NCBI GenBank assembly: GCA_025455225.1
Contig: JALOMY010000001.1
Location: forward strand, 1-44,560
DNA length: 44,560 bases
Direction: 5' to 3'
From: Cyclobacteriaceae bacterium
GTDB lineage: Bacteria > Bacteroidota > Bacteroidia > Cytophagales > Cyclobacteriaceae
Part shown: positions 2,862 through 40,400 of the stretch, piece by piece
Position numbering within the stretch: position 1 is the stretch's first letter
Layout: each line of letters opens with the position of its first letter
Notes under the pieces: model-generated
The model's input: the letters and a program-made list of their open reading frames with translations, nothing else
Told to the model about the DNA's origin: nothing
The model's database searches: none
Made by a program: the position numbers and the translations under genes

Positions 2862-2867
2862 AACGGG

Positions 2868-3590: not shown

Positions 3591-3593
3591 AGG

Positions 3594-4181
3594 TTATGAT
3601 AATTTTAAGAAGTCGAGCAATACCTGTTCACCTGCTCGTGCTGATTTTTCCGGATGAAACTGCACGGCATAGAAATTATCCTTCTTCATGGCTGCACTGA
3701 AAGGAACCGAATATTGGCAAATGGCCGATGTAAACGGATTAACCGGAACATAATAGCTGTGTACAAAATAAAACTCCTTGTTTTCCAGAATGGGATTCAA
3801 CCAGCCATTGGTCAGGGTTAGTTGATTCCATCCCATATGGGGTACCTTGAAGTTTTTATCGGGTTTAAACTGAAGCACATTTTCATTAAAAATTCCAAGG
3901 CAAGGTGTATCATTTTCTTCAGAATGGGTACACATCAATTGCATGCCCAGGCAAATACCCAGCACAGGTTGTTTTAAATTGCGAATAACATCATCGAGCC
4001 TTTTATCTTTAAGATACTTCATTGTAGTACTGGCTTCACCTACACCCGGAAAAATTACTTTTTCGGCAGAAAGAATTTCTTCGCTCTTATCGGTAATATG
4101 GTAGGTAATATTTAATCGCTCCAGAGCATACGATACCGATTGAATGTTGCCGGCATTATATTTTATGATAGCCACCTTCAT
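3594..4181 (-). CDS. hisH: imidazole glycerol phosphate synthase, glutamine amidotransferase subunit
   Basis: 195 aa class I GATase with PGVG, the GICLGMQL nucleophile elbow, and FHPEKS. It overlaps the hisB stop by 4 nt. Confidence 0.95.
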
Positions 4182-5293
4182 AGAGTCCCTTTGGTTGATG
4201 GTAATTGATTGCCTTCCCGTTTGATGGCCATCCGTATGGCTTTGGCGAAGGCTTTGAATACCGATTCGATTTTATGATGTTCATTTGTTCCTTCCGCCTT
4301 GATGTTTAGATTGCACTTTGCGGTGTCTGAAAAGGATTTGAAAAAGTGAAAAAACATTTCAGTGGGCATTTCCCCGATCTTTTCGCGTTTAAATTCAGCA
4401 TTCCAAACCAACCAGGGCCGGCCTCCAAAATCAATTCCTACCTGCGCCAGGCAGTCGTCCATTGGTAAAAGGAATCCATACCGTTCAATTCCCCGTTTAT
4501 CACCCATTGCTTTTAAGAAAGCATCACCCAGGGCAAGTGCAGTGTCTTCAATCGTATGGTGTTCATCGATGTGTAAATCACCTTTAACTGCAATCATGAG
4601 ATCAATGTTTCCGTGCCTCGAAAGCTGATCCAGCATATGATCAAAGAATCCAAGCCCGGTATTAATTGATGACTTGCCTGTACCATCCAGGTTAATCTCG
4701 ATTTGAATGTCGGTTTCTTTGGTTGTTCTTCGTACATGAGCTTTACGTGGAGGATAAACAAGAAAATCGAAAATAGCTTTCCAGTCGGTAGTAATTAAAG
4801 AACATGTTTCTCTCACTTCATTGATCTTATCAGATAAAGTACCATGATCGATCAGAATGGCCTTACAGCCAAGATTCTTTGCCATTTGGGCATCAGTAAT
4901 CCGGTCACCGATTACATAGGAATTCTTTAAATCGTAGTCTCCATGCAGAAATTCAGTGAGCATAGCAATCCCTGGTTTACGGGTAGGTTTATTTTCATGA
5001 GGGAAGGAGGGATCAATGAATATCTTTGAAAAAGTAACACCTTCACCTTCAAATGTTTTTAGAATTTTGTGTTGAGCCGGCCAGAATGTTTCTTCCGGAA
5101 ACGAGGATGTACCCAATCCATCCTGGTTGCTGACCATTACCAGCTCATAATCGCACGATTCTGCAATTGCACTTAACCAACGGAAGACACCGGGAAAAAA
5201 TTCAAGCTTTTCCAGGCTGTCGATTTGCTGATCGGGAGGTTCGAGAATTAAGGTGCCATCGCGGTCGATAAACAATACTTTTTTCATGATCAT
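4178..5293 (-). CDS. hisB: bifunctional histidinol-phosphatase / imidazoleglycerol-phosphate dehydratase
   Basis: 371 aa. The N-terminal HAD phosphatase carries FIDRDGT. The C-terminal IGPD carries DxHH.IED and NEHH motifs. The start could instead be the ATG 6 nt downstream. Confidence 0.93.
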
Positions 5294-5298
5294 CTGCT

Positions 5299-6339
5299 TT
5301 AGTTAGACTCCGAATACAAAATCAGTTTCTCAATCAATTGATCATTCTCAAGTGATGTTCCGATGGTTATACGGAGACAATCCTGACACAATACAACGGA
5401 AGAACGGTCGCGTACAATAATGCTATGATGCATCAGGTAATTATAAATGGATTTTGCATTTGCCATTCTGACCAACAAAAAATTTGCATCTGAGGGAAAT
5501 ACGGTTTGTACAATCGGAAGTTGTATTAAACGGTTTACAAGTCTTTCCCGTTCCTGGCGAATTATGTTGACTTGTTTGTTTTTTTCAACTTCCTTATCGA
5601 GTTGTTCTAAAACGATTTGTTGAGTGATTGAATTGATATTATACGGATATTTGATTTTGTTCAGTATGTTGATAATGGCTTCAGAAGCGAAAGCCATCCC
5701 TAATCTTAACCCAGCCAGGCCCCATGCTTTAGATAGTGTTTGCATCACAACCAGATTAGGAAACCTGGATAATATAGGAATAAACCCCTCATCGTCCGTA
5801 AAGTCAATGTAAGCTTCATCAATAACTACAATACCTTTGAATTGCTTAAGTAATTCCATGATTATTTCTTTATCCAAAAGATTACCGGATGGATTATTGG
5901 GCGAACAAAGAAATATCAACTTGAGAGATGAGTCTATTTTGGAATAGAGATCATCCGGGTTCAGTTGAAATTGAGAAGTAAGAAGTGATTTTTTAACAGC
6001 AACATCATTAATACTGGCGCATACAGAATACATTCCATAAGTGGGTTCTGCAATAAGAATAGAATCTTTACCGGGTTCACAGAAGGCACGTATCAGCAAA
6101 TCAATTGCTTCATCGCTTCCATTTCCGATAAATATTTGTTCAGCTTTGATTTTTTTGATGCCCCCAATTTTGTCTTTGAGTTTGATCTGCATGGGATCTG
6201 GGTACCGATGATAAAGGGACGGGAATGGATTTTCATTAGCATCCAGATAAATATCAGCAACCCCCTTAAATTCATCTCGGGCAGTAGAGTAGGGTTTGAG
6301 TTGTATGATGTTTGGTCGAACCAGGGAAAGTATATCCAT
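5299..6339 (-). CDS. hisC: histidinol-phosphate aminotransferase
   Basis: 346 aa class II aminotransferase with LDANENP, NPNNPSG, and the [17 protein letters not shown]-lysine motif. Confidence 0.93.
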
Positions 6340-6342
6340 TTT

Positions 6343-7644
6343 CTAAATGTTTTTTGACATTTTATCTAAATAGTTTAACCGTATGCTTACAGCTTGCTTA
6401 TGCGCCTCCAGCAATTCGGCTTCTGCCATCTTTTCCACAACAGGGCCAATATTCCTGATCCCTTCCTCCGAGACTTCCTGAAACGTGATGTATTTAAGGA
6501 AACTTTCAACCGAAACCCCTGCATAGGCTTTGGCATATCCATTAGTTGGCAGGGTGTGATTCGTTCCGGAGGCATAATCACCTATTGATTCGGGTGAATA
6601 GGAACCAATGAAAACCGAACCTGCATTCGTAATTTTTTCAGCTTGTTCCCGGGCATTTTGAGTTGCAATAATTAAATGCTCGGGTGCATATTCATTGATG
6701 AATTCCTCCGCTTCCGATTCAGAATCAAAGATCACAATGCGGCTGTGTTGTAACGCTTGTTCAGCAATTGATTTTCTGGGCAATGAATTCAGTTGCCTGG
6801 ATAACTCAGTTTGTATGGAAGTCAAAATATTTTCATTCGGTAAAACCAGCATTACCTGGCTATCGGCTCCATGTTCAGCTTGCGAAAGTAAATCAGCAGC
6901 AATGAAGGAGGGAATCGAAGAGTCATCGGCCCAAACTAGAACTTCAGATGGACCGGCCGGTAAATCAATTGCTATACCTTCCTGGCTGACCAATTGCTTG
7001 GCTTTAGTAACATACTGGTTTCCCGGACCAAAAATTTTTGATACGCGTGGAATACTCTCCGTGCCATAAGCCAATGCACCAATGGCTTGCGCACCTCCTG
7101 CCTTGCAAATACGCGTTACACCTGTAAGATGAGCTGCATACAGAATGGCAGGATTGATTTTCCCTGATTGATCAGGAGGGGAGCAAAGAATTATTTCGGC
7201 ACATCCGGCAATCCGTGCAGGTATGGCAAGCATAAGTACAGTAGAGAATAAGGGGGCTGTTCCACCCGGTATGTAAATTCCCACCTTCTCAATAGGCACC
7301 CCTTTTCGCCAGCACGTTATACCGGGCATTGTTTCGATTATTTTTACTTTTCGAAGCTGAGCTCGGTGAAATTTTTCTATGTTGTCTGCGGCCTGGTTAA
7401 TGGCCTTTTTCAAATCCTTTGAAACTAGTTCGATTCCCTCTTTTAGTTCCGCTTCATCAACCATTAACGATGTTAATTCTGCTTTGTCGAACTGGGCAGC
7501 AAATTCTTTCAAAGCCTGGTCACCGGATTGTCTAACGCGGTTAAAAATATTACGCACGGAACTTTCAAGATAATCCAGTTCCAATTCAGGTCGTTGGGTT
7601 AATGTGTTCCAGGTGGATCGGGGAGGATTATTATATACTTTCAT
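6343..7644 (-). CDS. hisD: histidinol dehydrogenase
   Basis: 433 aa with IYIPGG.AP..S.VLM, AGPSEV, QAEHG, and GDY..G.NH.LPT zinc/NAD motifs. Confidence 0.95.
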   Translation of the reverse strand: MKVYNNPPRSTWNTLTQRPELELDYLESSVRNIFNRVRQSGDQALKEFAAQFDKAELTSLMVDEAELKEGIELVSKDLKKAINQAADNIEKFHRAQLRKVKIIETMPGITCWRKGVPIEKVGIYIPGGTAPLFSTVLMLAIPARIAGCAEIILCSPPDQSGKINPAILYAAHLTGVTRICKAGGAQAIGALAYGTESIPRVSKIFGPGNQYVTKAKQLVSQEGIAIDLPAGPSEVLVWADDSSIPSFIAADLLSQAEHGADSQVMLVLPNENILTSIQTELSRQLNSLPRKSIAEQALQHSRIVIFDSESEAEEFINEYAPEHLIIATQNAREQAEKITNAGSVFIGSYSPESIGDYASGTNHTLPTNGYAKAYAGVSVESFLKYITFQEVSEEGIRNIGPVVEKMAEAELLEAHKQAVSIRLNYLDKMSKNI

Positions 7645-7658
7645 AATTTTAGCCGCAT

Positions 7659-8543
7659 TTATAAAATCATTTTTTCAATCGGAATTACCAGGATGCCCTC
7701 GGCACCAAGGGCCTTCATCTGATCGATCTTTTCCCAGAAATCATTCTCATCGACAACTGAGTGTAAAGAGCTCCAGCCTTTTTTTGCCAGGGGAAGAATG
7801 GTAGGGCTTTTCATTCCGGGAATAATACGAGTAATTGGTTCAATGGCTTCATTCGGGCAATTCAATAAGATGTATTTATTGTTTTTCGCTTTTTGAACGG
7901 CTTCAATGCGGAATAGAAGTTTATCCAAAATGGATTGTTTCGCTGCACTTAAATCCGGGCCTGCAATCAAAACAGCTTCTGAACGTAAAACAACTTCAAC
8001 TTCTTTAAGTCCGTTGCTGAGTAAAGTGCTGCCGGTACTTACAATATCGCATATAGCATCTGCTAGTCCTATGCCTGGTGCAATTTCTACCGAGCCGCTG
8101 ATTTCATGAATTCCTGCTTGAATGTTATTTTGTTCTAGAAACTGGCGAACAATAAATGGGTAGGAGGTAGCAATGTTTTTACCATTGAACCATTGAATAT
8201 TGGTGTACTCAACCGATCGGGGCACTGCCAGGGATAACCGGCATATCCCGAAATTGAGCCGATTAACAAGTTTATTATTTTTTTGTTTTTCGATGAACAC
8301 ATTTTCACCAACTATACCGGCATCAGCCACGCCATCTTCAACATATTGAGGAATATCATCATCGCGAAGGAAGAGCAGTTCAACCGGAAAGTTTACGGCT
8401 TTGGTTTTGAGCTGGTCTTTTCCGTTTGAGAATCTCAGACTGCTTTCTTTTAATAATTGGATGGATCCTTCCTGTAGCCGACCTGATTTCTGGACGGCAA
8501 TTCGCACTATTTCTGTTTCCATTTTATCGTTTAGCATAGCCAT
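7659..8543 (-). CDS. hisG: ATP phosphoribosyltransferase, long form with C-terminal regulatory domain
   Basis: 294 aa with IAVQKSGRL, DIP.YV..G.AD.GIVG, and D.V.TG.TL. It is the first gene of the operon. Confidence 0.93.
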   Translation of the reverse strand: MAMLNDKMETEIVRIAVQKSGRLQEGSIQLLKESSLRFSNGKDQLKTKAVNFPVELLFLRDDDIPQYVEDGVADAGIVGENVFIEKQKNNKLVNRLNFGICRLSLAVPRSVEYTNIQWFNGKNIATSYPFIVRQFLEQNNIQAGIHEISGSVEIAPGIGLADAICDIVSTGSTLLSNGLKEVEVVLRSEAVLIAGPDLSAAKQSILDKLLFRIEAVQKAKNNKYILLNCPNEAIEPITRIIPGMKSPTILPLAKKGWSSLHSVVDENDFWEKIDQMKALGAEGILVIPIEKMIL

Positions 8544-8571
8544 ATTCGGATATTCAGTTTATAAGTTTGTA

Positions 8572-8610
8572 TTAAACAAAAAAGGCCTGCCGGATCGCGG
8601 CAAGCCTTTT
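8572..8610 (-). terminator. intrinsic terminator (attenuator stem-loop) between the his leader peptide and hisG
   Basis: Minus-strand RNA reads AAAGGCUUGCCG-CGAUC-CGGCAGGCCUUU. This is a 12-bp stem with one G.U pair, followed by UUUGUUUAAU. Confidence 0.8.
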
Positions 8611-8629
8611 TAAAAGTCTTATCTCCAGG

Positions 8630-8707
8630 TTAAACCATAAAGCTGCCACGCATCGTGTTGTAAACATGATGATGGTGATGATTCAATATGGCTACCGTAT
8701 TGCTCAT
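8630..8707 (-). CDS. hisL: his operon leader peptide (25 aa, MSNTVAILNHHHHHVYNTMRGSFMV)
   Basis: The ORF runs from ATG at 8707 to TAA at 8630-8632. It has five consecutive His codons (CAT CAC CAT CAT CAT, 8666-8680). It ends 86 nt upstream of hisG and is followed by the terminator. It is too short to appear in the supplied ORF track. Confidence 0.8.
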   Translation of the reverse strand: MSNTVAILNHHHHHVYNTMRGSFMV

Positions 8708-8732
8708 AAAATTACGGCTCAAAGAAAAATAA

Positions 8733-9362
8733 CTAATTGGAATTATCAAAACTGACCTTAATTTTTCTTCTTACATAAACAAAGATTATGGTAAAGATCA
8801 GAAAAACAGCACCTACAGCACCAAATAAAACGGTGAATTCATATCGTTCAGTGTAGTTATTAAGAATAATTTCATCCGGATTGACTGGGTTAATCAGAAT
8901 GGGGATTTGCTCGCCCACCTCATATTGCGGAGGAGTATAGTAAACAGTACCCTTTGCTTCTTTTAATTGACCTTCCCATTCATATTGCAGAACCGGCACA
9001 GCACCCCCGGTATCGTTCCATTCCAGTGAAATGACTTTACCGGTTGCCACTGCTCCATTTTGAAACGGGTTACTCATGAAGTAGAATACTCCGGCAACGA
9101 TTGTAAAAGCCAATGCAATTAGACCAAACAAGAAGGAGAAAATGAGTAAAAAAGCAGAAATACAGCCTGTTACATTGATGACCCGGTCAGGTAATCCAGT
9201 AGGAGAAATTTTACGGGTTTCGGAAACTAAAGCTTCAATTAGTTTGTCTGCCTCTTCTGAAGTTATTTGCAAGCGGGATTGAAAGAGGACTTTTGCCTGG
9301 TCGCGATGGCCGCTTCGTATTAACCGAATAGCCTCCTCTTTTAATTGTTGCTCAAAATTCAT
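8733..9362 (-). CDS. DUF3592-like membrane protein with an N-terminal helical (L7/L12-C-like) module
   Basis: 209 aa. The N-terminus reads EEAIRLIRSGHRDQAKVLF...SEEADKLIEAL. A TM helix is followed by a beta-rich segment (GKVISLEW...VLQYEW...Y.PP.YEVGE.I.I..NP..P) and a C-terminal TM helix, which is the typical DUF3592 architecture. Confidence 0.65.
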   Translation of the reverse strand: MNFEQQLKEEAIRLIRSGHRDQAKVLFQSRLQITSEEADKLIEALVSETRKISPTGLPDRVINVTGCISAFLLIFSFLFGLIALAFTIVAGVFYFMSNPFQNGAVATGKVISLEWNDTGGAVPVLQYEWEGQLKEAKGTVYYTPPQYEVGEQIPILINPVNPDEIILNNYTERYEFTVLFGAVGAVFLIFTIIFVYVRRKIKVSFDNSN

Positions 9363-25962: not shown

Positions 25963-28900
25963 ATGCACCAGATCAGGCATTTTTTAATTGCGGCATTACT
26001 CCTCATTTTTTCTGCCGTTGCTTATGCACAACCTGCCACCGTTACGGTTGATGAAATTAGAAATCCCTGCGGGGCATCCGTTAACGGATCCATCCGGATC
26101 ACGGTAACCGCTGGTGCCGGCCCATTCACCTACTTTTTAATTGGTTTCAATACTCCAATTGTTTTATCCGCAAATCTTGCGCTGGGTGTTCCAACGGTGG
26201 TACCCAATCTGCCCCCAGACAATTATCTGTTAATAGTCTCGGACAATGATCCGGCTCCAAATTTTCAACAAGCATTTAATCTGGTCAGCTCCCCAATAAT
26301 TACGGGATCCGTTGACCCTGGATTTCCGGTAAACAATACCGGGTGTACTACACCTGATGGTGCAATCTCAGTAACAATTAATGGAGGTACTGGCGCTTAT
26401 TCCTATTTGTGGGCCGGGCCATCCGGTTATACCAATAATATAGAAGATATATCGGGTCTTGCAGGGGGTGATTATTTATTGCTGGTAACAGATGCCGGAT
26501 CAAGTTGTAATTTCCAATTGGGACCCATTAAGATTACTGATCCAGAACCTGCCTTACAGTCGATTACGAACACAGGTACTCAATTGATTTGTGTTGGTGA
26601 TGATGCCGTGGTCAATTTATCAGGGTCCGAAACAACGGTAACCTATGAAGTTCTGGTTAACGGTTTCTCGGTTGGAATACCAACAGTAAACGGAACCGGT
26701 GGTTCCATCAATATTCCTGTACCGGCCGGGTCGTTTACCGATGGTGATGCCCTGGTGGTACAAGCCCGCTCGGGAATATGTACTCCAATTCTAATGAATG
26801 GAGTAATCATCACGGATATTGTTGCACTGGTAACAAATAGTGTCGTAACCAACAATACAAGTTGTATATCATTTAACGGAGCAATCGATTTAACAGTAAC
26901 CGGAAGTGCCGGTCCATTTACCTACCAATGGTCAGGTCCTAATGGATTTACAAACAATACTGATCAGGATATCTCTAATTTGGAACAAGGTAATTATACA
27001 GTAATCGTTACCGATGTACCCAGTGGATGTACCCTCAACTCGGTTATCGTGGTTGGCGATAGCCGTCCTGTTCTTACGGTCGATAATTTAACATTTGCCG
27101 ATGTTTCCTGCTTTGGCGGAAATGATGGATCCATCCAGATTGCGGTGATCGGGGGCGCAGGATCCATAAGTTATACAATAACACCGGATGTGAACCTGGT
27201 TGGGAGTGTGGCATTAGGTAATTTTACTAATCTTCCAGCCGGAAACTATACGGTGCGTGCTACCGATGCTGTTAGCGGATGTTTTATTGATGTTATTCAG
27301 GCCATCAGTCAGCCACCGGCACCCACAGCCGATGCCGGGCCGGATCAAACAGTTTGTGCTGGAGACAATGTAGTGTTAGCAGGTGTTATAGGTGGTTCTG
27401 CAACCGGTGCATCGTGGAGCGGAGGAACAGGTGTTTTTACACCCGACAATCTTACCTTAAATGCTACATATACGCCCAGTGCTGCTGAAATAACTGCCGG
27501 TACAGTGACATTAACACTGACTACAATTGATCCGGACGGTGCAGGTCCTTGTACAGTAGCGTTTGACCAGGTAACCATTACAATTAATCCGGCAGCAACA
27601 GCCGATGCGGGTGCGGATCAAACCATTTGTTCCGGTAATACGGTAAGCTTATCGGGAGTAATAGGAGGTTCTGCTTTAAGCTCCACATGGTCTACTTCGG
27701 GTGATGGAACATTCAGTGATGCATCCATCTTAAATCCCATTTATACCCCAGGTCCTAATGATGTTACTTCAGGTTCTGTTACATTAACTCTGACAACGGA
27801 TGATCCTTCCGGACCATGTCTACAGGTAAGTGATGTTATTTTAATTACCATTAATCCTCTGGCAACAGTTAATGCCGGCCTTGACCAGGAAATTTGTTCA
27901 GGTCAGACAGTAACATTAGCCGGATCATTTGGAGGGGCTGCATCAAGTGCCATATGGACAACCGCTGGTGATGGCACCTTTGATAATGCGAGCTCACTCA
28001 CTGCAATTTATACACCGGGTCCGAATGACATTATAGCAGGAACAGTTACACTTACTCTTACTACTGATGACCCTTCCGGTCCTTGTTCACCGGCAATCGA
28101 TGATTTAATAGTTACAATTACGCCAGTTCCAATTGTTAATGCCGGAGCCGATCAGGAAATCTGTTCAGGCCAGACGGTGAGTCTGACCGGGTTAATTGGT
28201 GGTTCTGCGAGCAGTGCTACGTGGACAACCTCAGGCGATGGTACGTTTGATAATGCAGGTTCACTTACCGCGATTTACACGCCAGGCGCGAATGATATAT
28301 CAACGGGTACGGTCACATTGACCTTAACGACCAATGATCCAGCGGGGAACTGTCCATCCGTAAACGATGCAGCAGTCATTACCATTACACCTGCAGCCAC
28401 CGTGAATGCCGGAGCCGACCAGGAGATTTGTTCGGACCAGACTGTAAATCTGATTGGAGTAATCGGTGGTTCAGCGAGCAGTGCTAGCTGGACAACCTCG
28501 GGTGATGGAACGTTTGACAACGCAGGTTCCCTTACTGCGATCTACACTCCAGGTGTAAATGATATTATAGCTGGCACGGTTACATTAACCTTAACTACCG
28601 ATGATCCAGCCGGGAACTGTCCATCGGTAAACGATGCAGTAATCATTACGATTACACCAGCAGCCACCGCGAATGCCGGAGCCGACCAGGAAATTTGTTC
28701 CGATCAGACTGTTAGCCTGACCGGAGTAATAGGTGGTTCGGCAAGTAGTGCTACCTGGACAACTTCAGGAGATGGTTCGTTTGATAATATTAATTCATTA
28801 ACAGCGATTTATACACCTGGATTGAATGATCTTACTAACGGAACCGTCACATTAACCCTTACAACCGATGATCCATCCGGCAATTGTGGGTCAGTAAGCG

Positions 28901-31900
28901 ATGTAATAATCATTTCGATTTCCCCTGCGCCTACAGTAAATGCAGGCCCTGATCAAGCGATATGCAGTGGCAATACAGTAGCTTTAAATGGGATATTCGG
29001 TGGATCAGCAAGCAGCGCATCCTGGTCAACTTTGGGTGATGGAAGTTTCGACAACGTAAATTCACTTACGGCAGTATATACTCCAGGCCCAAATGATCTT
29101 ACTGCAGGAACGGTTACGTTAACTCTTACAACGGATGATCCGGCAGGGAATTGCGGACCCGTAAACGATATTGTAATTATAACGATTACCCCTGCCGCAA
29201 CAGCGGATGCCGGTACGGATCAGGAGATATGTTCCAATCAGACCGTGAGCCTCAATGGCGTAATCGGTGGATCGGCAAGTACCGGTACATGGACAACTTC
29301 AGGTGATGGCGTATTTGACAATGCCAATTCACTTACAGCGGTTTATACACCAGGTACCAGTGATTTAACAACAGGTGCTGTAACGCTGACTTTAACTACT
29401 GATGACCCCGCTGGAGATTGTACTCCAGCCAGCGATGCCGTAGATATCACAATTACACCATCTGCCACAGTTAATGCAGGAATTGACCAGGAGATTTGCT
29501 CCGGACAAAGTGTAAGCTTAAATGGAATTATCGGTGGTTCAGCCAGCAACGCAAGCTGGTCGACATCAGGCGATGGCTCATTTGATAATGTGAATTCATT
29601 AACTGCGATTTACACCCCTGGCCCTAATGATCTGACAGCCGGTACAGTTACGTTAACCTTAACCACAAATGATCCGGTTGGGAATTGCAGCGCATCAAGT
29701 GATGCGTTACTTATCACAATAACACCTTTGCCAACTGTAAATGCCGGAGCAGATCTGGATGCATGTTCGGATCAGTCGGTAACCCTGAATGGATCAATAG
29801 GAGGTTCAGCCAGCAGTGCTACCTGGACAACTTCAGGCGATGGTACTTTTAACAATGTCAATTTATTAGCGGCAATTTATACTCCAGGTCCAAACGATCT
29901 CGTGGCCGGAACGGTATCATTAACCTTGACCACGGATGATCCGGCAGGCAATTGCAGTTCGGTTAATGATCTCCTCGTTGTTACGTTTTCAACTGCAGCA
30001 CTTGTAGATGCAGGTCCTGATGTTTCAGTTTGTTCAGGAAATACTGTTTCGTTGAACGGAACTTTTGGTGGATCTGCAAGTAGTGCTGTTTGGACTACAG
30101 CCGGGGATGGAACATTTGATAATCCGAATTCACTCACAGCAATTTATACTCCGGGTGCCAATGATCTCACTGCCGGCACAGTTACGCTGACTCTTACAAC
30201 CGATGATCCTGCAGGTGTTTGTTCGGCAGTAAGTGATAATTTGGTTGTAACAATATCTTCTGCGCCTACGGCAACTCTTTCCGGAACAAATACAATCTGC
30301 CAGGGTGAAGCAACCAATCTTACTTTTATTTTAACCGGTGTAGGGCCCTGGAATCTTGTCTATACCGATGGGACAAATAATTTCCCGGTAAACAACATAG
30401 CATCAAGTCCTTTAATAATCAGTGTCACACCCGGTACAACAACAACATACAGCCTGGTTTCCATATCGGATACATGTGCACCTGCCGGAACGGTAAATGG
30501 AACAGCCATAATAACCGTTCAACCGTTGGCGCCACCAACTTCAGCAACCTTAAGCGGTGATGCCACTATATGCAACGGAGAGAATACGGATCTCTCAGTA
30601 ACTATTGCAGGTGGCACCGGTCCTTTTGAGGTAACAATCAACGATGGCACCTCGAATATTTTGATTTCTAACTATTCAGACGGAACTCCTATTTCTGTTT
30701 CTCCGGTTACATCGACAACCTATACTTTGGTTTCAGTCGTAGATAATAATGGATGTAATTCATTAGCATTGGCAGGCACCGCCACAGTTACCGTTAATCA
30801 GGGACCTACTGCGGCAACATTACAAGGCACCATATCCATTTGTACTGGTGGAACTGCCGTATTATCTGTTGCAATTACCGGGGGTATCGGACCGTATAGT
30901 TTTACTATTGATAATGGGGTAGGGTTGATTTCAAATTATATCAGCGGAGATCCAATCAATGTAGCACCACTTGTAACAACAACCTATGCGATTGTTGGTA
31001 ACGTTACAGATGCCAACGGGTGCATTATTGCTGGTACAGGGACAGCCGATGTTACAGTCTCGAGCGCACCAACTGCTGCGATCAGTGGCACGGCTTCCAT
31101 TTGTGACGGTCAATTTACAGATCTGACCATTACACTTACCGGAGTCGGACCGTGGGATATCGTTTATTCAGATGGCTCTTCGAATATTTCCGTTACCGGA
31201 ATTTTAACCAGTCCTCTGATAATACCTGTTAGCCCGGTCGCAACGACAACGTATACCCTTGTTTCGGTAGATGATACCTGCGGTGCAGGCACCGTATCCG
31301 GATCAGCAACAATAACAAAACGTCTTCCTACTGATCCTGTATGTATTGGAATCGGCATTGGCTGCTTTGCCTATACAATTGTAATTGATAATACACTTAC
31401 ACAAAGACCCTCATGTGATAATCAGAATGATGGAGTTATCGCGTTCAATGTTACGGGCACCGTGCCGGGTAATTACATCATACAGCTGATTTCTCCAACA
31501 GATACCCTTTCCCAGGTTGGGCCATCCGGGTTGTATGTATTTTCCAATTTATCTCCGAATGCTTACAGTTACCGGATTGAGGATGTAAATGGCAACATAT
31601 GCCAGCAACCATTCAATCTTCCATTGGAGACATCTGTGGTGGCTACAGCTTCAGGCTTTATTGATGTTGCTTGTTTTGGAACATCAACTGGCCAAGCCAC
31701 CTTTACAGTAACATCAGGGGGTAATTCACCTTATGAATATTCCGTGGATGGATTAACCTGGTTTTCGTTTTTATCTGGCCAGTCGGTAACTAATCTGCCT
31801 CCCAATGGAACGTATACAGTATTGATAAGGGATGATGAAAATGATTTATGTCCATATCCTGTATCCGTCACGATTAACAATATCAATCCGGCAATTACCA

Positions 31901-33249
31901 TTGATTTTGATACACAAGACGCCACGTGTGGCAACAATGATGGATCGATTTCCATTGTAACTCCACCGGCTGGAGGAACGGGCGGGCCGTATACCTTTAA
32001 AGTTGATGGAACAGATGCCGTTCCGGTAAATGACACGTTTGAGAATCTGTTTGGTGGAAACCATATCATAACCGTAATTGATAACTCAGGTTGTGAGCGT
32101 AATTTCACAGTCTTTGTTCCCTATCCGGATTTTATTCTGATTGCAGCCGTTAACAGCACTGATGCTTCCTGCACGCAACTTGGAAGTATTGGTATTCTGA
32201 TCGATAACTTTATCCCTTCCGCACCGTATGAGGTTGCCATTACCAATTCCATTTCAACGGTTCCTGTTGATTTCTTGGGACAATATTATTTAGGAAACGG
32301 TCTTGTTTTAATTACGGAGTTGACCCGGGGAGATTATTTTGTATGGATTAGAACCAGTGGTTCACAATGCCCAACCTTAGTAAATAACATAATTAATAAT
32401 TTACCGATTACTCTGGCTGGCCCTGTTCCAGTATCATTTGACGTAAGCTGCAGGTTCTCCAACGGTGATTTACAGCTAACAAATATTTCAGGTGCTCCGG
32501 GTTTGCCCTACCAATTTGAAGTATTTGGAAATGGTTTTCTGGTTACAGGAAACTTAACACCCGATCCATTGGGCAATGCTGTTATCAGTGGGTTTACATC
32601 CGGTCAGTATGCGGTTAATCTCATTCAGGACCAGGGCCCAATTGGAGGATGCCCTACAGCAAGTTCCGGTTACCAGAATGCGCCCTTAGCATCGTTGGAT
32701 ACAGTCTCTGTCCGTGTACCCGATCCGTTTGCCAAATTTGATCAATCATTCCCTGAAAAAGGGACAGCATCCCGCATAATACGGATACAGGAAAGCGGAT
32801 TGGGTGATTATGAAATCCGACTTGAATTGGTGGATGCTTTCGGATCACCGGATCCGAATCCAATCCGGGATTGGACGGTGATAAATAATCAGGAAATCCA
32901 ATACAGTGACCTTTTTGCAGGTAATTATATTCTTTCATTACGCGATGGTTATGGATGTCAGAAAAATTATAACCTGACCATCGATATGTTTACCGGTATC
33001 TGGATTCCCAACATCTTCACACCGAATAACGATGGATATAATGATACCTTTTACATCCGTAATCTTCCTGCTTCGGGTGCGGATTTAATTGTTTCCAATC
33101 GTTGGGGTAATCAGGTGTTCTCATCATCAGACTACCAGAACGAATGGGATGGAGCCAACCAGGCAGATGGTGTATATTATTACAGGCTTCAGGTGAATGG
33201 TGAAGTCTACACCGGATGGATTGAAATTATGCGGGGTTCAAAACCTTAA
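25963..33249 (+). CDS. giant SprB-repeat cell-surface adhesin with a type-B T9SS C-terminal sorting domain
   Basis: 2428 aa with a signal peptide (LLLIFSAVAYAQ). SprB-type repeats (C.....DG.I.....GG.GPY.Y.W.GP.G) occur in the N- and C-proximal parts. The middle holds 11 x 89-aa and 4 x ~90-aa tandem domains. The C-terminus reads IPNIFTPNNDGYNDTFYI...SNRWGNQVF...WDG...DGVYYY. Confidence 0.9.
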   Translation: MHQIRHFLIAALLLIFSAVAYAQPATVTVDEIRNPCGASVNGSIRITVTAGAGPFTYFLIGFNTPIVLSANLALGVPTVVPNLPPDNYLLIVSDNDPAPNFQQAFNLVSSPIITGSVDPGFPVNNTGCTTPDGAISVTINGGTGAYSYLWAGPSGYTNNIEDISGLAGGDYLLLVTDAGSSCNFQLGPIKITDPEPALQSITNTGTQLICVGDDAVVNLSGSETTVTYEVLVNGFSVGIPTVNGTGGSINIPVPAGSFTDGDALVVQARSGICTPILMNGVIITDIVALVTNSVVTNNTSCISFNGAIDLTVTGSAGPFTYQWSGPNGFTNNTDQDISNLEQGNYTVIVTDVPSGCTLNSVIVVGDSRPVLTVDNLTFADVSCFGGNDGSIQIAVIGGAGSISYTITPDVNLVGSVALGNFTNLPAGNYTVRATDAVSGCFIDVIQAISQPPAPTADAGPDQTVCAGDNVVLAGVIGGSATGASWSGGTGVFTPDNLTLNATYTPSAAEITAGTVTLTLTTIDPDGAGPCTVAFDQVTITINPAATADAGADQTICSGNTVSLSGVIGGSALSSTWSTSGDGTFSDASILNPIYTPGPNDVTSGSVTLTLTTDDPSGPCLQVSDVILITINPLATVNAGLDQEICSGQTVTLAGSFGGAASSAIWTTAGDGTFDNASSLTAIYTPGPNDIIAGTVTLTLTTDDPSGPCSPAIDDLIVTITPVPIVNAGADQEICSGQTVSLTGLIGGSASSATWTTSGDGTFDNAGSLTAIYTPGANDISTGTVTLTLTTNDPAGNCPSVNDAAVITITPAATVNAGADQEICSDQTVNLIGVIGGSASSASWTTSGDGTFDNAGSLTAIYTPGVNDIIAGTVTLTLTTDDPAGNCPSVNDAVIITITPAATANAGADQEICSDQTVSLTGVIGGSASSATWTTSGDGSFDNINSLTAIYTPGLNDLTNGTVTLTLTTDDPSGNCGSVSDVIIISISPAPTVNAGPDQAICSGNTVALNGIFGGSASSASWSTLGDGSFDNVNSLTAVYTPGPNDLTAGTVTLTLTTDDPAGNCGPVNDIVIITITPAATADAGTDQEICSNQTVSLNGVIGGSASTGTWTTSGDGVFDNANSLTAVYTPGTSDLTTGAVTLTLTTDDPAGDCTPASDAVDITITPSATVNAGIDQEICSGQSVSLNGIIGGSASNASWSTSGDGSFDNVNSLTAIYTPGPNDLTAGTVTLTLTTNDPVGNCSASSDALLITITPLPTVNAGADLDACSDQSVTLNGSIGGSASSATWTTSGDGTFNNVNLLAAIYTPGPNDLVAGTVSLTLTTDDPAGNCSSVNDLLVVTFSTAALVDAGPDVSVCSGNTVSLNGTFGGSASSAVWTTAGDGTFDNPNSLTAIYTPGANDLTAGTVTLTLTTDDPAGVCSAVSDNLVVTISSAPTATLSGTNTICQGEATNLTFILTGVGPWNLVYTDGTNNFPVNNIASSPLIISVTPGTTTTYSLVSISDTCAPAGTVNGTAIITVQPLAPPTSATLSGDATICNGENTDLSVTIAGGTGPFEVTINDGTSNILISNYSDGTPISVSPVTSTTYTLVSVVDNNGCNSLALAGTATVTVNQGPTAATLQGTISICTGGTAVLSVAITGGIGPYSFTIDNGVGLISNYISGDPINVAPLVTTTYAIVGNVTDANGCIIAGTGTADVTVSSAPTAAISGTASICDGQFTDLTITLTGVGPWDIVYSDGSSNISVTGILTSPLIIPVSPVATTTYTLVSVDDTCGAGTVSGSATITKRLPTDPVCIGIGIGCFAYTIVIDNTLTQRPSCDNQNDGVIAFNVTGTVPGNYIIQLISPTDTLSQVGPSGLYVFSNLSPNAYSYRIEDVNGNICQQPFNLPLETSVVATASGFIDVACFGTSTGQATFTVTSGGNSPYEYSVDGLTWFSFLSGQSVTNLPPNGTYTVLIRDDENDLCPYPVSVTINNINPAITIDFDTQDATCGNNDGSISIVTPPAGGTGGPYTFKVDGTDAVPVNDTFENLFGGNHIITVIDNSGCERNFTVFVPYPDFILIAAVNSTDASCTQLGSIGILIDNFIPSAPYEVAITNSISTVPVDFLGQYYLGNGLVLITELTRGDYFVWIRTSGSQCPTLVNNIINNLPITLAGPVPVSFDVSCRFSNGDLQLTNISGAPGLPYQFEVFGNGFLVTGNLTPDPLGNAVISGFTSGQYAVNLIQDQGPIGGCPTASSGYQNAPLASLDTVSVRVPDPFAKFDQSFPEKGTASRIIRIQESGLGDYEIRLELVDAFGSPDPNPIRDWTVINNQEIQYSDLFAGNYILSLRDGYGCQKNYNLTIDMFTGIWIPNIFTPNNDGYNDTFYIRNLPASGADLIVSNRWGNQVFSSSDYQNEWDGANQADGVYYYRLQVNGEVYTGWIEIMRGSKP
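27328..30270 (+). repeat. 11 in-frame tandem repeats (first 273 nt, then ten of exactly 267 nt = 89 aa) inside the adhesin gene
   Basis: Unit starts, read from the sequence: 27328, 27601, 27868, 28135, 28402, 28669, 28936, 29203, 29470, 29737, 30004. The consensus is [AV][ND]AG.DQ.ICS...V.L.G.IGGSASS..W.T.GDG.F.N...L.A.YTPG.ND...G.V.LTLTTDDP.G.C....D...ITI.P. There are two Cys per unit. Confidence 0.9.
30271..31320 (+). repeat. 4 in-frame tandem repeats of a second domain type (~87-91 aa) inside the adhesin gene
   Basis: Units start at 30271, 30544, 30814 and 31075. The consensus is A.[LI]SG...IC.G....L...[LI].G.GP[WFY]...Y.DG........S.P..I.V.P...TTY.LVS[IV].D.. Confidence 0.85.
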
Positions 33250-35800: not shown

Positions 35801-36172
35801 GTGGAAGAGAACAAACCAAACGGCAGGGATGAAATATTCTCTGCCAAAGTAAAAGCGGGTAAGCGAACCTATTTCTTTGATGTAAAGTCCACCCGCGGTA
35901 ATGATTATTACCTGACCATCACCGAAAGCAAAAAACGCTTCAAGGAAGATGGATTCACGTATGAGAAGCACAAAATCTTCCTTTACAAGGAAGATTTTAA
36001 CAAGTTTCTCGAAGCACTTAACAACACGGTAAATCACGTTAAAAACCAATTAATGCCGGACGTTGATTTCAGCCAGTTTGATCAAATTCACGACAACCAC
36101 GAAGAAGTGCATGCCTCGGAACCGGCCATTAAGGAGAATAACCACAATAATTCAGAGCTTAAATGGGACTGA
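35801..36172 (+). CDS. bacterial PUR-alpha-like nucleic-acid-binding protein (DUF3276)
   Basis: 123 aa with a GTG start. It has IFSAKVKAGKRTYFFDVKSTRGNDYYLTITESKKR...KHKIFLYKEDF.KF...L, the PUR-repeat pattern. A strong terminator follows. Confidence 0.75.
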   Translation: MEENKPNGRDEIFSAKVKAGKRTYFFDVKSTRGNDYYLTITESKKRFKEDGFTYEKHKIFLYKEDFNKFLEALNNTVNHVKNQLMPDVDFSQFDQIHDNHEEVHASEPAIKENNHNNSELKWD

Positions 36173-36289: not shown

Positions 36290-37387
36290 ATGGGCTTGCA
36301 GTGCGGAATAGTAGGACTACCCAACGTGGGTAAATCAACCTTGTTCAATGCCATTTCCAATAATAAGGCGGAGGCTGCAAACTTTCCGTTCTGTACCATA
36401 GAACCTAACGTTGGGGTAATTTCTGTACCTGATCCACGTCTGAAAACTTTGGAAGACCTGGTTAATCCACAGCGTGTGATCCCTGCAACTATTGAATTTG
36501 TTGATATTGCCGGCCTTGTAAAAGGTGCCAGCAAAGGGGAGGGATTAGGCAACCAATTTCTGGCCAATATACGTGAGGTGGATGCTATTGTACATGTAAT
36601 CCGATGTTTCGATAATGACAACATCGTGCATGTAGATGGACGTGTTAACCCGGTTGCCGATAAGGAGATAATCGATACCGAACTTCAACTTAAAGACCTA
36701 GAATCGGTGGATAAGAAAATCAACCGGGTTGAAAAGATTGCTAAAAGCGGGGATGCAAAGGCTAAAAAGGAACTATCTGTTCTTCAGATTTATAAAGACG
36801 CTTTGCTGGAAGGAAAAAATGCCCGGGTAGTCGATGTTTCTGAAGAGGATAAAAAGGCAATTGAGGATTTGCAGCTATTAACAGCTAAGCCGGTGATTTA
36901 TGTCGCTAACGTAGATGAAAAGTCAGTACACACCGGTAATGAATATGTGGATGCCTTACGGAACCTGGTCAAATCGGAGCAAGCCGAAGTTGTTGTTATT
37001 TCAGCCGCTATCGAAGCCCAGATTGCAGAATTGGAATCGGAAGAAGAACGTAGTGTCTTTCTGAAGGAATATGGCTTGGAGGAATCAGGACTTAATAAGC
37101 TAATCCGGGCCTCCTACAGCCTGCTTAATCTGATTACATACTTTACGGCAGGTGAAAAGGAAGTACGGGCCTGGACCATCAAAAGAGGGTGGAAAGCGCC
37201 TCAGGCAGCAGGGGTAATTCACACCGATTTTGAGAAGGGATTTATCAAAGCTGAAGTAATTAAATTATCTGATTATCAACAATATAAGACCGAGCAAGCC
37301 TGCCGGGAAGCAGGTAAAATGGCAATTGAAGGAAAGGAGTATGTGGTTCAGGATGGTGACATTATGCACTTCCGTTTTAATGTATAG
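36290..37387 (+). CDS. ychF: redox-regulated ribosome-binding ATPase YchF
   Basis: 365 aa with [43 protein letters not shown], and the C-terminal TGS domain (RAWTI..G..AP.AAG.IH.DFE.GFI.AEV). Confidence 0.97.
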
Positions 37388-37515
37388 ATGTGTAAATATT
37401 CAATCGGGTATTGCTTAATTTTTTAATTTTTTTGTAGCTTTATAATCCGCTCATTATCAGGTTAAAGCGGGTCTTCAGGTTTAGGCATTTTTTAACCACA
37501 TTTATTTTTTGACAC

Positions 37516-38316
37516 TTGAGAACCAGAATCATTTTTTCGCTTAAGAACAGGGGAGCCTATGTACCGTTCCACCATCAGTTTTTACTTGCTCAGTTCATAA
37601 AGGGCCTATTGATGTTTGGACCTGACAAGTCATTCAGAACATATACACAGTTTAATTTCTCCGGTTTAAAGGGTCAGACTAAAATCAGCAGAAAAGGACT
37701 ACACTTTTATTCATCAAAAGTCACCCTCGTCTTTGCCTGTACAGACAAAGTATTTCTGGATTATTTTCTGGGACGGCTATTTGAGCAGAAGGATATCATG
37801 CTGGGCAGTCTTCATCTGAGTCCGGAAGCCGTTGAGACAGAAGTACCGGCAGAAATATATTCCGAATCCCGGTTCTTATGTATTTCACCTATTGTGCCTA
37901 TTCCTGCCTCTTTCAATGATGACCAGGGAAAAAAATTCATCTCACCCGATACAGACGAATTTTCAGATTTACTGTATGATTCAACACTTTCCAGAATGGA
38001 AGAAAGCGGACGGTTCACGGCTGAACAATTAGCAAGCTTTTATAAGTTTCAGATTGTTCCTGATGCCGGATATTTGCAGAAATTACAGGAAGCCAATAAG
38101 AAATTTGCCAGGATTTACCCGTTATACGATAACGATATAAAATTTGAAGTCCGGGGTTATACGTTTCCTTTTACACTATATGCAGCCCCGGAAGTTCAGC
38201 AATTCATATATGAATATGGTCTCGGCCATTTTACACACAAAGGCTTTGGAATGCTTGACGTTGCGGGAAACGATTCGGTTAAGCGGGAACCTCGAAAGGA
38301 TGTAGTTTACGCCTGA
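37516..38316 (+). CDS. Cas6-like RAMP endoribonuclease homolog (solo; no array or cas partners in the window)
   Basis: 266 aa with a TTG start. The N-terminus reads MRTRIIFSL...YVPFHHQFLLAQFIKGLL (compare the VPYNHQYYLQGLIY element of archaeal Cas6). Mid-protein has F.CISPIV. The C-terminal glycine-rich loop is YGLGHFTHKGFGML, matching G-h-G-x5-G-h-G. Confidence 0.65.
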   Translation: MRTRIIFSLKNRGAYVPFHHQFLLAQFIKGLLMFGPDKSFRTYTQFNFSGLKGQTKISRKGLHFYSSKVTLVFACTDKVFLDYFLGRLFEQKDIMLGSLHLSPEAVETEVPAEIYSESRFLCISPIVPIPASFNDDQGKKFISPDTDEFSDLLYDSTLSRMEESGRFTAEQLASFYKFQIVPDAGYLQKLQEANKKFARIYPLYDNDIKFEVRGYTFPFTLYAAPEVQQFIYEYGLGHFTHKGFGMLDVAGNDSVKREPRKDVVYA

Positions 38317-38382: not shown

Positions 38383-39081
38383 ATGAAGTTGTTTCGTTAC
38401 TTTCTTGCTCTTTTCAGTGTGTTAACCGTGTTCATGTTCAGCACGTGTGATGAAGATGAACCTGATTCGGATTTAGGGCGTGCTGTATACGATAAAAGTG
38501 GTAATCAATATTCAACCATTAAAATTGGAGACCAGGTTTGGTTAAAAGAAAACCTACGCACTACACTCTATAACAATGGCGATCCGATAAGTACTACCGC
38601 CAATGCTTCAACTGATATTTCAGCTGAAGGATCGCCAAAATACTGGTGGATCTATTTTGATGGGAGCGATCCGGTTGGAACCAGTGTAGGGCGCCTTTAT
38701 ACGTGGCATGCATTAAATGATGCAAGAGGTGTGTGCCCTCCCGGATTTCGGGTGCCGGTTGAAGATGATTGGATTGAATTAGCCAATTTTCTGGGTGGTA
38801 ATTTATTTGCCGGTGGCAAGTTGAAACTGGAAGGAACAGGAATCTGGAATGCACCTAATTCAGGGGCGACAAACGAGGTAAATTTCGATGCTTTGCCGGG
38901 TGGTTTTCGACAGCCGGATGGTACTTATGTCGGATACGGAACTTCGGCTTTATTTTGGACCTCAACCTCTTCAACCGTTGATACGGCTATCGGATTTACC
39001 TTATCTAACCAAAATACGGTCTTAGGTACAGCAACACAGGATAAAAAATACGGAGCCTCCTGCCGTTGCATTGAAAATTAA
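38383..39081 (+). CDS. FISUMP-domain lipoprotein (Fibrobacter succinogenes major paralogous domain)
   Basis: 232 aa with lipoprotein signal ...VFMFSTC-D. It has Y.T.KIGDQVW..ENL......NGDPI, GRLYTW.A......CP.GFRVP...DW..L...LGG...AG.KLK..G...W......ATNE..F.ALPGG.R. Confidence 0.85.
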   Translation: MKLFRYFLALFSVLTVFMFSTCDEDEPDSDLGRAVYDKSGNQYSTIKIGDQVWLKENLRTTLYNNGDPISTTANASTDISAEGSPKYWWIYFDGSDPVGTSVGRLYTWHALNDARGVCPPGFRVPVEDDWIELANFLGGNLFAGGKLKLEGTGIWNAPNSGATNEVNFDALPGGFRQPDGTYVGYGTSALFWTSTSSTVDTAIGFTLSNQNTVLGTATQDKKYGASCRCIEN

Positions 39082-39083
39082 GA

Positions 39084-40400
39084 TTACCGCAACCGTGGAT
39101 TCTTTTCAAAGCGGAGGTAACCAATCAAGACATCAATTTGTCTCTGAAATTCCCTGTAGTACACAAAAATTTCATAGCCATTTTCGGTTTGAAAATAGCT
39201 TCCTTCAAAATAATGGGAAGGCAGCGTTGTTGATTTAACACTGTATTGGTAATCATACCAACCTTGTTTTAGAAGGAACTTTGCCTGGTAGGTGCGCGAC
39301 TGCGCATCGTATTGCATTCGGGTTGATTCGTCTTGGATCCATTGGTTAAACGATCCAACAGCGTAAACATCTCCGTTTATCCTCTCCGGAGAGGCTAACG
39401 TGAACGCCACGTCCAAATAATTGGCAGCATTGGTAATCCGGTAGTCGTAATTATCAAGCATAAAATTACCATTGATGTCTTCGTACTGTGAATAGGCTTC
39501 GCTTGCTCGGTTTTTATCTTTTTCCAGATAGGCGGTCCAGGGCATTGCAGATTTATCCATGTAGGCCACATTTCTGCCTGGATAGTTAATGGAACGCAGA
39601 TCGAAAAAGCGAAATTCATTCCCACCTTTAATAAGATCTGTATCGCTGAAAAACCGATACTCAAGTTCATTGTTAAACTCCCGAACAAAAGAAGGTTTTA
39701 CTTCCTGGGCAATATTATCCCATCGTTGATTTTGCCTGATCGATACATTAACGGTTTCTATCGGGTTAATCATCGCGAAGTTTTTATAGTTAACAGTGAA
39801 GTTTATCTGTTGATTCTGAACCGCAGCACTTCCGGAAGTAATCATATTTTCTTCTCGCTGGAAGGTTACCCGTTGATCATAAACCATGAATCGCTTACTT
39901 AACACAATATCATCCCGGTCACTTCCCCGGTACACAACAACAACATAATTGCCGGGCAATTTAACAGCAGGAAGCATGACCCAGTAATGAACGTAGGGAA
40001 TCCAGGTATCGAGTGAAAACTCAAAATCATTGATCGGGAATTCATTGTAATCATGAAGAAAATCTAGATCCATGAGGGATGATTTCGTCCAGTTCTGATT
40101 GCAATGAATGATTCTCATTGAATAGGAGTCCCGGTCAGTATGTAAATCATCGAATTCCAATACAAGATTCCATTGCCCCATACGGGTAACAGAAGGTTGC
40201 ATTTGCATGGCAGGAGTTGGCAGAGCCGGGAATACACGTACAGTTTTGATATTTTCTTCGTAGGTCCGGTCGGCTAATTCAAGTTTTTTGTTATGGTATT
40301 TATTAAAGGAAATACCCGTTACCGGGTTTGAAAAAGCTGCCAAAACAAATACAAGCACTATAGGGTGTTTCATACTTTTAAAAGTAAAAATATAATCCAT
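39084..40400 (-). CDS. DUF5103-like protein (T9SS plug-protein family candidate)
   Basis: 438 aa with a signal peptide. It has IKTVRVFP...P.......L.LEFDDL......Y...I.HCN.NW..S.L....FL..Y.EF.I.....S..T..PY.HY....P, which I associate with the DUF5103 / T9SS plug N-terminal domain. The assignment is from memory only. Confidence 0.55.
   Translation of the reverse strand: MDYIFTFKSMKHPIVLVFVLAAFSNPVTGISFNKYHNKKLELADRTYEENIKTVRVFPALPTPAMQMQPSVTRMGQWNLVLEFDDLHTDRDSYSMRIIHCNQNWTKSSLMDLDFLHDYNEFPINDFEFSLDTWIPYVHYWVMLPAVKLPGNYVVVVYRGSDRDDIVLSKRFMVYDQRVTFQREENMITSGSAAVQNQQINFTVNYKNFAMINPIETVNVSIRQNQRWDNIAQEVKPSFVREFNNELEYRFFSDTDLIKGGNEFRFFDLRSINYPGRNVAYMDKSAMPWTAYLEKDKNRASEAYSQYEDINGNFMLDNYDYRITNAANYLDVAFTLASPERINGDVYAVGSFNQWIQDESTRMQYDAQSRTYQAKFLLKQGWYDYQYSVKSTTLPSHYFEGSYFQTENGYEIFVYYREFQRQIDVLIGYLRFEKNPRLR

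Follow-up and report, generated by a model that had tools for sequence, protein, structure and literature searches.

Cas6, an endoribonuclease of CRISPR systems, is regarded as a dedicated CRISPR enzyme, and the latest pipeline for the classification of CRISPR-associated (Cas) proteins treats profile matches outside CRISPR-cas islands as false positives (PMC12669027). Here we describe a cas6-like gene, Cas6L, that lies directly downstream of the housekeeping gene ychF in a 44,560-nt stretch of DNA from a member of the Cyclobacteriaceae (contig JALOMY010000001.1, positions 1 to 44,560; hereafter the window), and compare it with the closest described systems. Its nearest canonical relatives are the Cas6b-type proteins of type I-B systems (PADLOC PDLC01782), such as P0200, which are 24-30% identical to Cas6L over nearly the full length and share its fold, length class, glycine-rich loop and 'LSP' core. 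These relatives keep a helix-1 Tyr, a 'WLHDxGY' His loop and a 'FKxFTFS' Lys and are encoded in cas operons, whereas in the Cas6L clade all three catalytic features are gone and the gene stands beside ychF.

Among solved structures, the Pyrococcus furiosus Cas6-related protein 3UFC and PH0350 (3QJJ/3QJP) are among the best Protein Data Bank (PDB) matches to Cas6L (E 1e-15 and 2e-13; template modelling (TM) score 0.75-0.84), and a non-catalytic Cas6 homolog has been reported from Pyrococcus horikoshii (PMC3902920). The PDB title of a Pyrococcus protein of the repeat-associated mysterious protein (RAMP) superfamily reads 'One RAMP protein binding different RNA substrates'. Unlike Cas6L, these archaeal paralogues bind the repeat RNA of CRISPR and come from genomes that bear CRISPR loci; they are only ~20% identical to it and have no known ychF link or housekeeping-like conservation. 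PfCas6 (3I4H/3PKM) and Methanocaldococcus jannaschii Cas6-1 (5YI6) have a tandem RNA recognition motif (RRM) architecture like that of Cas6L (TM 0.70-0.81) and share with it the 'VP(Y/F)xHQ' helix-1 start and the glycine-rich loop, but are crRNA-processing enzymes of CRISPR loci, unlike Cas6L in its context. Other Cas exaptations have been described, namely a Streptomyces type I-E derivative with a STAND (signal transduction ATPase with numerous domains) NTPase, haloarchaeal HRAMP, solo Cas4, and type IV systems and CRISPR-associated transposons (PMC8730458, PMC5704561). Like Cas6L, they are Cas-derived and stand outside canonical adaptive immunity; in contrast to it, they are multi-gene, linked to defence or mobile elements, or belong to nuclease families with many non-Cas relatives, whereas Cas6L is one RAMP gene fixed among housekeeping genes, without any further partner of Cas origin.

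The initial annotation of the window had read Cas6L as a Cas6 fold kept outside any CRISPR-Cas context and exapted to bind or process RNA, and this reading is supported by the fold, the distribution, the CRISPR-free flanks and the lost catalytic positions. Cas6L probably handles cellular RNA rather than CRISPR RNA, and we consider it fairly probable that this Cas6 derivative acts independently of CRISPR, binding a specific cellular RNA and sharing a pathway with YchF. The gene and the protein elements that bear on this reading are as follows.

37516..38316, forward strand: cas6-like gene (Cas6L), 266 aa, TTG start, stop included (open reading frame (ORF) list, PF01881, PADLOC Cas6b, AlphaFold2 model)
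37564..37578, forward strand: codons of the helix-1 start P17-F-H-H-Q21; H20 and Q21 are the clade signature, where canonical relatives mostly have N-Y-Q
37612..37653, forward strand: shortened connector between helix 1 and strand 2 (residues 33-46), from which the canonical His-bearing catalytic loop is deleted
38218..38253, forward strand: glycine-rich loop G235-L-G-H-F-T-H-K-G-F-G-M246, the RAMP/Cas6 signature and the best-matching stretch to PDB Cas6 chains

The 266-aa ORF lies exactly at the coordinates, strand and TTG start first proposed for it, and its translation contains both sequence elements on which the Cas6 assignment had been based (MRTRIIFSL...VPFHHQFLLAQFIKGLL, residues 1-32; YGLGHFTHKGFGML, residues 234-247). 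The profile searches and structure prediction that the initial annotation had suggested both point the same way. Residues 114-249 match Cas_Cas6_C in Pfam (PF01881; 71.5 bits, cut-off 23), and scores against the PADLOC Cas6b/Cas6 models reach 92.9 bits, the Cas6b model covering the protein at full length; P0200 has the same best-scoring profile, at 207.6 bits. A profile of the Cas6L family retrieved Cas6 structures from the PDB (3ufc, 1e-15; 5yi6, 6e-15; PH0350, 2e-13). The AlphaFold2 model, built with 54 homologues, is confident (predicted local distance difference test (pLDDT) 91.8, predicted TM score 0.87), and its order of strands and helices fits two ferredoxin-like/RRM domains. Of the 50 PDB matches listed by Foldseek, 47 were Cas6-family chains and the three exceptions type III-D effector chains; the best among those listed reached an E value of 3e-18 and comprised 5yi6, 3ufc, 3qjj and 3i4h/3pkm (TM 0.70-0.84). 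Because profile scores, model and PDB matches agree, Cas6L is a genuine Cas6-fold protein with homology far above chance rather than a chance motif match, and the possibility that it is not a real Cas6 was ruled out by fold and profile scores. It nonetheless scores 51.9 bits against the NCBIfam equivalog TIGR01877, just below the cut-off of 58.65; it is a member of the Cas6 family, yet it fails this equivalog-level model.

The automatic gene call for the contig begins at M33 and gives a 234-aa protein (P0002), losing strand 1 and helix 1 (37516-37611). Since every homologue conserves residues 1-32, for which the model has a pLDDT of ~95, the TTG start is the correct one. In 83 of 83 close loci the gene starts with TTG or GTG; Fulvivirga, Roseivirga and Fulvitalea also use TTG, and the most divergent lineages of the family start with ATG. 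At the other end, the C-terminal tail (residues 250-266; 38263-38313) is variable and predicted to be disordered (pLDDT 48-58). A conserved '...YA' closes it in the aligned 266-aa members (61-86% identical), though the 292-aa Roseivirga member is without it; this terminal '...YA' may be a short docking motif.

Next, we compared the catalytic positions of the clade with those of canonical Cas6, using 81 full-length representatives (32 clade members and 49 canonical relatives) for the tree and the segment measurements. It had been noted from the sequence that no His follows helix 1 where many Cas6 enzymes place theirs, and this proved true throughout the clade, in the alignments and among the 81 representatives. 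The segment spanning residues 22-47 measures 20-29 aa in 29 of 32 clade members, compared with 35-41 aa in 41 of 49 canonical relatives, and alignment A5 shows a gap of ~12 residues in the clade opposite the canonical 'YAxWLHDxGY'; the motif LH[DENTQ] occurs in none of the 32 clade members and in 31 of the 49 canonical relatives. Position 29 is a Tyr in 39 of 49 canonical relatives but in 2 of 30 clade sequences (alignment A1), which mostly have K, D, N, R or E, and the strand-2 Lys of the canonical relatives is absent from the clade. For PfCas6 we take the catalytic triad to be Tyr31/His46/Lys52, a numbering consistent with the printed PDB chain; pairwise alignment places Tyr31 opposite K29, His46 opposite Q45 and Lys52, with its loop, opposite a gap. 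A catalytic loop His with helix-1 Tyr and/or Lys was accordingly not found in Cas6L.

Other features are retained. The PfCas6 'VPYNHQ' aligns with the helix-1 start of Cas6L, where a Tyr-to-His change at position 20 yields 'PFHHQ' in the clade; H20 is present in all 54 sequences of alignment A4, 29 of 30 of alignment A1 and 30 of 32 clade representatives, versus 3 of 49 canonical relatives. The glycines G235, G237, G243 and G245 (G-h-G-x5-G-h-G) are invariant in every alignment, canonical Cas6 included. Also kept in the clade are S49, the 'SP' core (S124, P125), Y186, R199, Y215 and many basic residues, the conserved ones comprising R2, R4, K52, K56, R160, K195, K196, R199 and R213, and many of the clade's basic residues being conserved at at least 90%. 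The invariant glycine-rich loop and the conserved basic residues suggest that Cas6L would still bind RNA; it has the Cas6 fold and the RNA-binding elements and no catalytic His, the combination that characterises non-catalytic Cas6. The isoelectric point (pI) was dropped as evidence on RNA binding, since the clade and canonical Cas6 cannot be told apart by it.

Cas6L relatives are widespread and evolve like housekeeping genes. A search of 5.8 billion proteins returned 1562 homologues, of which the best 120 are 71-86% identical, almost all of 266 aa, and come from Chryseolinea, Dawidia, Chryseosolibacter and 'Cyclobacteriaceae'/Fulvivirgaceae metagenome-assembled genomes (MAGs); where the databases name them, the name is Cas6 or 'CRISPR-associated endoribonuclease Cas6'. 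Clustering at 50% gave 48 clusters below 1e-30, after which full-length matches fall to about 1e-10, where canonical-looking Cas6 proteins begin (21-31% identity). At least 530 GTDB species, scanned as one genome per species, encode a Cas6L relative, the wider members including Fulvivirga, Roseivirga, Fulvitalea, Penaeicola, Microscillaceae, Algoriphagus sp., Bernardetia and Bacteroidota MAG lineages. A neighbour-joining tree shows the clade to be monophyletic (32 of 32 members together, no intruders); its defining changes are the shortened connector, the replaced helix-1 Tyr and the His at position 20, and it derives from CRISPR-linked Cas6b-like enzymes. Against eight orthologous loci, nonsynonymous divergence (dN) was 0.10-0.25 for Cas6L, 0.07-0.24 for YchF, 0.14-0.23 for DUF58 and 0.18-0.50 for the type IX secretion system (T9SS) plug protein; as synonymous sites (dS) were saturated in nearly all comparisons, only the dN ranks and an upper bound for omega (dN/dS) are usable, and that bound places Cas6L well below about 0.15. 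The protein identity of Cas6L (66-86%) tracks that of the adjoining housekeeping genes. Because dN is close to that of YchF, dS is saturated and identity follows the housekeeping neighbours, the pattern is that of a vertically inherited, constrained cellular gene, unlike that of the patchy, fast-evolving cas genes. A decaying pseudogene was ruled out by this purifying selection.

The absence of any CRISPR array and of any other cas gene from the window, both asserted at the outset, held up. Tandem Repeats Finder and a direct-repeat search returned nothing CRISPR-like, and the other sizeable ORFs scanned have a non-cas Pfam match, no match, or a conserved non-cas orthologue; the genes of the window include the his operon, SMC, T9SS/SprB genes and ychF. 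Across the window no Rfam family passed its gathering threshold, and a search of the surroundings of the Cas6L gene at E≤1 was likewise empty. The flanks of 94 related loci, reaching ±7-10 kb and amounting to ~1.5 Mb, contained no CRISPR-like array, and there was no cas gene in the Pfam- or PGAP-annotated ones. The best match outside the clade, P0200 (30% identity), is encoded in a cas operon with Cas3. A k-mer array scan of the flanks gave two weak matches, at 8560-8740 of locus L052 (Chryseosolibacter histidini), where short dispersed 'AATCCTGTAAATCC'-type repeats lie upstream of ychF, and at 937-1120 of locus L080, a 30-nt head-to-tail tandem repeat; both are simple repeats without spacers and were ruled out as CRISPR. 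Neither 2.9 M viral contigs nor phage records yielded a family member, and the sole match in a plasmid collection lies on a replicon of 602 kb that is non-mobilizable and has purQ and rimM as well. With no viral or phage match and the one plasmid match on a replicon with housekeeping genes, a mobile-element origin was ruled out.

What does accompany Cas6L is ychF. The neighbouring genes are these.

35801..36172, forward strand: DUF3276 gene, often retained upstream of ychF-cas6L (PF11680 on orthologues)
36290..37387, forward strand: ychF, a ribosome-associated Obg-family ATPase gene, 128 nt upstream of Cas6L (YchF-GTPase_C/MMR_HSR1 domains on the orthologue)
38383-39081: Fib_succ_major ('FISUMP') lipoprotein gene, between Cas6L and the T9SS-plug gene
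39084-40400: PF17116 (T9SS_plug_1st) gene

The initial annotation had correctly named ychF and two envelope genes, a FISUMP lipoprotein gene and a DUF5103 gene, as the neighbours, and had asked whether the ychF/cas6-like/FISUMP arrangement is conserved. The first part is: in 83 of 83 close loci the gene directly upstream, on the same strand, is ychF, with a spacer of mostly 113-130 nt. Apart from the window, the FISUMP gene is seen only in its two closest relatives, loci L001 and L002, as a recent insertion specific to that lineage; for most of the other close loci, the T9SS-plug match starts no more than a few bases from the Cas6L stop. The T9SS-plug gene converges on the Cas6L 3' end in 80 of 83 close loci, and the DUF3276 gene is present in 69 of 83 as well as in the divergent loci L084-L087, L089, L091 and L092. 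The envelope genes are incidental. In divergent contexts, 8 of 10 loci keep ychF directly upstream (L084-L087, L089, L091, L092 and L094) while the other neighbours change; ychF is upstream in Fulvivirga ligni, Roseivirga, one 9-Mb genome and P0143, in Fulvitalea, where a cold-shock gene follows Cas6L, and in a 29%-identity lineage, where dxr follows it. Two loci of ~30% identity (L091, 3456-9090; L092, 3753-9158) carry the string DUF3276-arginase-YmdB-ychF-cas6L-rhodanese-YceG on one strand. YmdB-type metallophosphoesterases act on 2',3'-cyclic phosphates, and the presence of a YmdB-like enzyme in the same gene string as a Cas6 derivative is suggestive, if a weak lead.

The conserved adjacency suggests a functional link between Cas6L and YchF, and from it we infer a shared pathway. 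Since YchF, an ATPase that binds ribosomes, modulates translation (PMC8138138, PMC11814078), Cas6L too may be linked to translation. The conserved non-CRISPR context would also imply that Cas6L recognises an RNA different from CRISPR repeats.

The ychF-cas6L spacer itself contains two conserved signals.

37435..37445, forward strand: promoter-like box TAGCTTTATAA (TAGyTTTATAA), in the Chryseolinea-like clade; putative promoter
37447..37470, forward strand: hairpin CCGCU(C)-13-nt loop-AGCGG directly after the box, 5 bp, with a conserved UCAG-containing loop

The consensus of the Bacteroidetes -7 promoter element is TAnnTTTG, which the spacer box resembles; positions T1, A2 and T5-A11 are invariant in 65 of 65 distinct spacers, and comparable TAnnTTT(A/G) boxes are readable in the Fulvivirga, Roseivirga and Fulvitalea spacers, where the hairpin is absent. 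A scan of the spacer for sigma-70-type promoters and terminators found none, Bacteroidetes promoters lying outside the scope of the tool. The box and the TTG/GTG starts together suggest that cas6L may have its own promoter and low translation. In the hairpin, 89% of cells are paired, versus 34-54% when the partner column is slid, and 0 of 500 shuffles reach its score; one pair covaries (CG 31, UA 16, UG 12, other 6). It is a candidate for a structure in the 5' leader of the cas6L mRNA or, alternatively, for a weak ychF terminator. Being restricted to the Chryseolinea-like clade and present once in the window, it was ruled out as a family-wide Cas6L substrate. The whole spacer folds no better than its shuffles (z 0.56), and RNAalifold on 77 ychF-cas6L spacers yielded no consensus structure.

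Taken together, the data are consistent with the following course of events. The Cas6L clade would have branched from CRISPR-linked Cas6b-like enzymes and then quit CRISPR-Cas altogether, to be inherited vertically as a single-locus chromosomal gene under strong purifying selection in Cytophagales and some uncultured Bacteroidota, usually directly downstream of ychF. In the clade the His loop was deleted, other residues took the place of the helix-1 Tyr and the strand-2 Lys disappeared, while the glycine-rich loop, the 'HQ' and invariant Lys, Arg, Tyr and Ser residues were kept. With a promoter of its own and a TTG start codon, the gene would be expressed at a low level, and the protein would bind one specific cellular RNA element through its Cas6 RNA-binding surfaces without canonical His-mediated cleavage, by analogy with the non-catalytic Cas6 paralogues of Pyrococcus, and would act in the YchF pathway, that is, in translation- or ribosome-related RNA handling. 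More tentatively, and with less confidence than in RNA binding and a shared YchF pathway as such, we propose that Cas6L could be the first RAMP/Cas6-fold protein to have been permanently domesticated into a housekeeping factor, a YchF-coupled, sequence-specific binder (or non-canonical cleaver) of an rRNA, tRNA or mRNA element that tunes translation in the Shine-Dalgarno-poor Bacteroidota independently of CRISPR.

Several observations weigh against a CRISPR-independent RNA binder in the YchF pathway. No RNA partner was found, there being neither an Rfam match nor a conserved RNA element across the family, and the pI of the family is near neutral, a range with which the canonical relatives overlap. 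The absence of CRISPR applies to the DNA covered, namely the flanks and the window, which is apparently a whole contig of 44,560 bp. Adjacency with ychF is by itself a hint of a link and no demonstration, and two members have no ychF next door. One of these (L093, 7001-13815; P0156, 36% identity) stands beside GmrSD and MmeI-type restriction genes in a defence-island-like setting, with no CRISPR array within the 14.7-kb locus, and could be a relocated or secondarily mobilised copy. The other (L095; Bernardetia sp. Wsw4-3y2, NZ_CP147018.1 328852-329664) is 54% identical and has an IS4 transposase nearby; its 602-kb replicon looks like a chromid rather than a plasmid. Finally, loss of the canonical triad is no proof of lost cleavage: Cas6 active sites vary widely and some active Cas6 enzymes have no His (PMC3902920), and because of this plasticity the loss of canonical catalysis in Cas6L is a likely rather than a proven one. 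The clade's own invariant H20, S49, K52, Y186, R199 and Y215 could form a new site, and Cas6L possibly processes RNA in a non-canonical way.

This last point leads to the alternative that survives best, though we judge it unlikely: that Cas6L is an active CRISPR-independent endoribonuclease with a rebuilt, non-canonical site, cutting a specific cellular RNA, for example a stable RNA precursor or an mRNA leader, to 2',3'-cyclic phosphate ends. The His-less active enzymes and the clade's invariant residues would fit such a nuclease, as would, as a weak lead, the YmdB-family gene found in the same string in two divergent lineages, but the Tyr, loop His and Lys of the nearest canonical relatives and of PfCas6 are all gone. 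Furthermore, Arg22 and His23 on helix 1 of TtCas6A and TtCas6B add less than 7-fold to the cleavage rate (PMC3902920), which would bear on H20 if the positions are equivalent, and among the closest solved sequences is PH0350, a protein of Pyrococcus horikoshii, the species with the reported non-catalytic Cas6 homolog (PMC3902920).

It is highly improbable, in our assessment, that the Cas6 fold has been re-used for a role without RNA, as a protein-binding adaptor or a DNA-binding factor in which the RNA features are leftovers. The empty Rfam searches, the RNAalifold result on the spacers, the near-neutral pI and the conserved '...YA' after the disordered tail, a possible docking motif, would suit such a protein; against this, CRISPR-linked canonical relatives have a similar pI, the glycines of the loop never vary and conservation reaches at least 90% at many basic residues. 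To our knowledge, all characterised members of the Cas6 fold bind RNA. Least probable of all is a dispersed cas6 of the ordinary kind, with crRNA maturation in trans for remote arrays or cas6-less type III loci, as the database name would have it and as the rest of each genome beyond the inspected DNA (window and flanks) could in principle accommodate, because in at least 83 species the gene has a fixed chromosomal place beside ychF and is constrained like a housekeeping gene, neither an array (94 loci) nor a cas gene (annotated flanks) lies within ±7-10 kb, the catalytic His loop is deleted clade-wide, and the clade is monophyletic and apart from the relatives in cas operons.

If Cas6L is indeed a CRISPR-independent RNA binder in the YchF pathway, it would be a clear case of a RAMP protein recruited into core cellular RNA biology, would offer a concrete handle on the function of the universally conserved but poorly understood YchF in Bacteroidota, and would provide a naturally occurring protein of a well-understood fold that binds RNA sequence-specifically and either does not cleave it or cleaves it in another way. 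It would also correct the label 'CRISPR-associated endoribonuclease Cas6', a name that leads automated surveys to list orphan cas genes in these genomes. The family already carries the Cas6 label in databases; what is new is a domesticated Cas6 in a housekeeping context, and in the literature searched no paper links Cas6 with ychF or describes a solo Cas6 of Cytophagales.

Two further features of the window were recorded. A complete histidine biosynthesis operon (hisG, hisD, hisC, hisB, hisH, hisA, hisF and hisIE) occupies 1519-8543 on the minus strand, and its presence confirms the window as ordinary chromosomal DNA. A 267-bp tandem repeat (28138-28920; 2.9 copies, 80% match) lies inside a 2428-aa SprB/CHU_C-type ORF (25963-33249) and presumably encodes repeated Ig-like or SprB domains.

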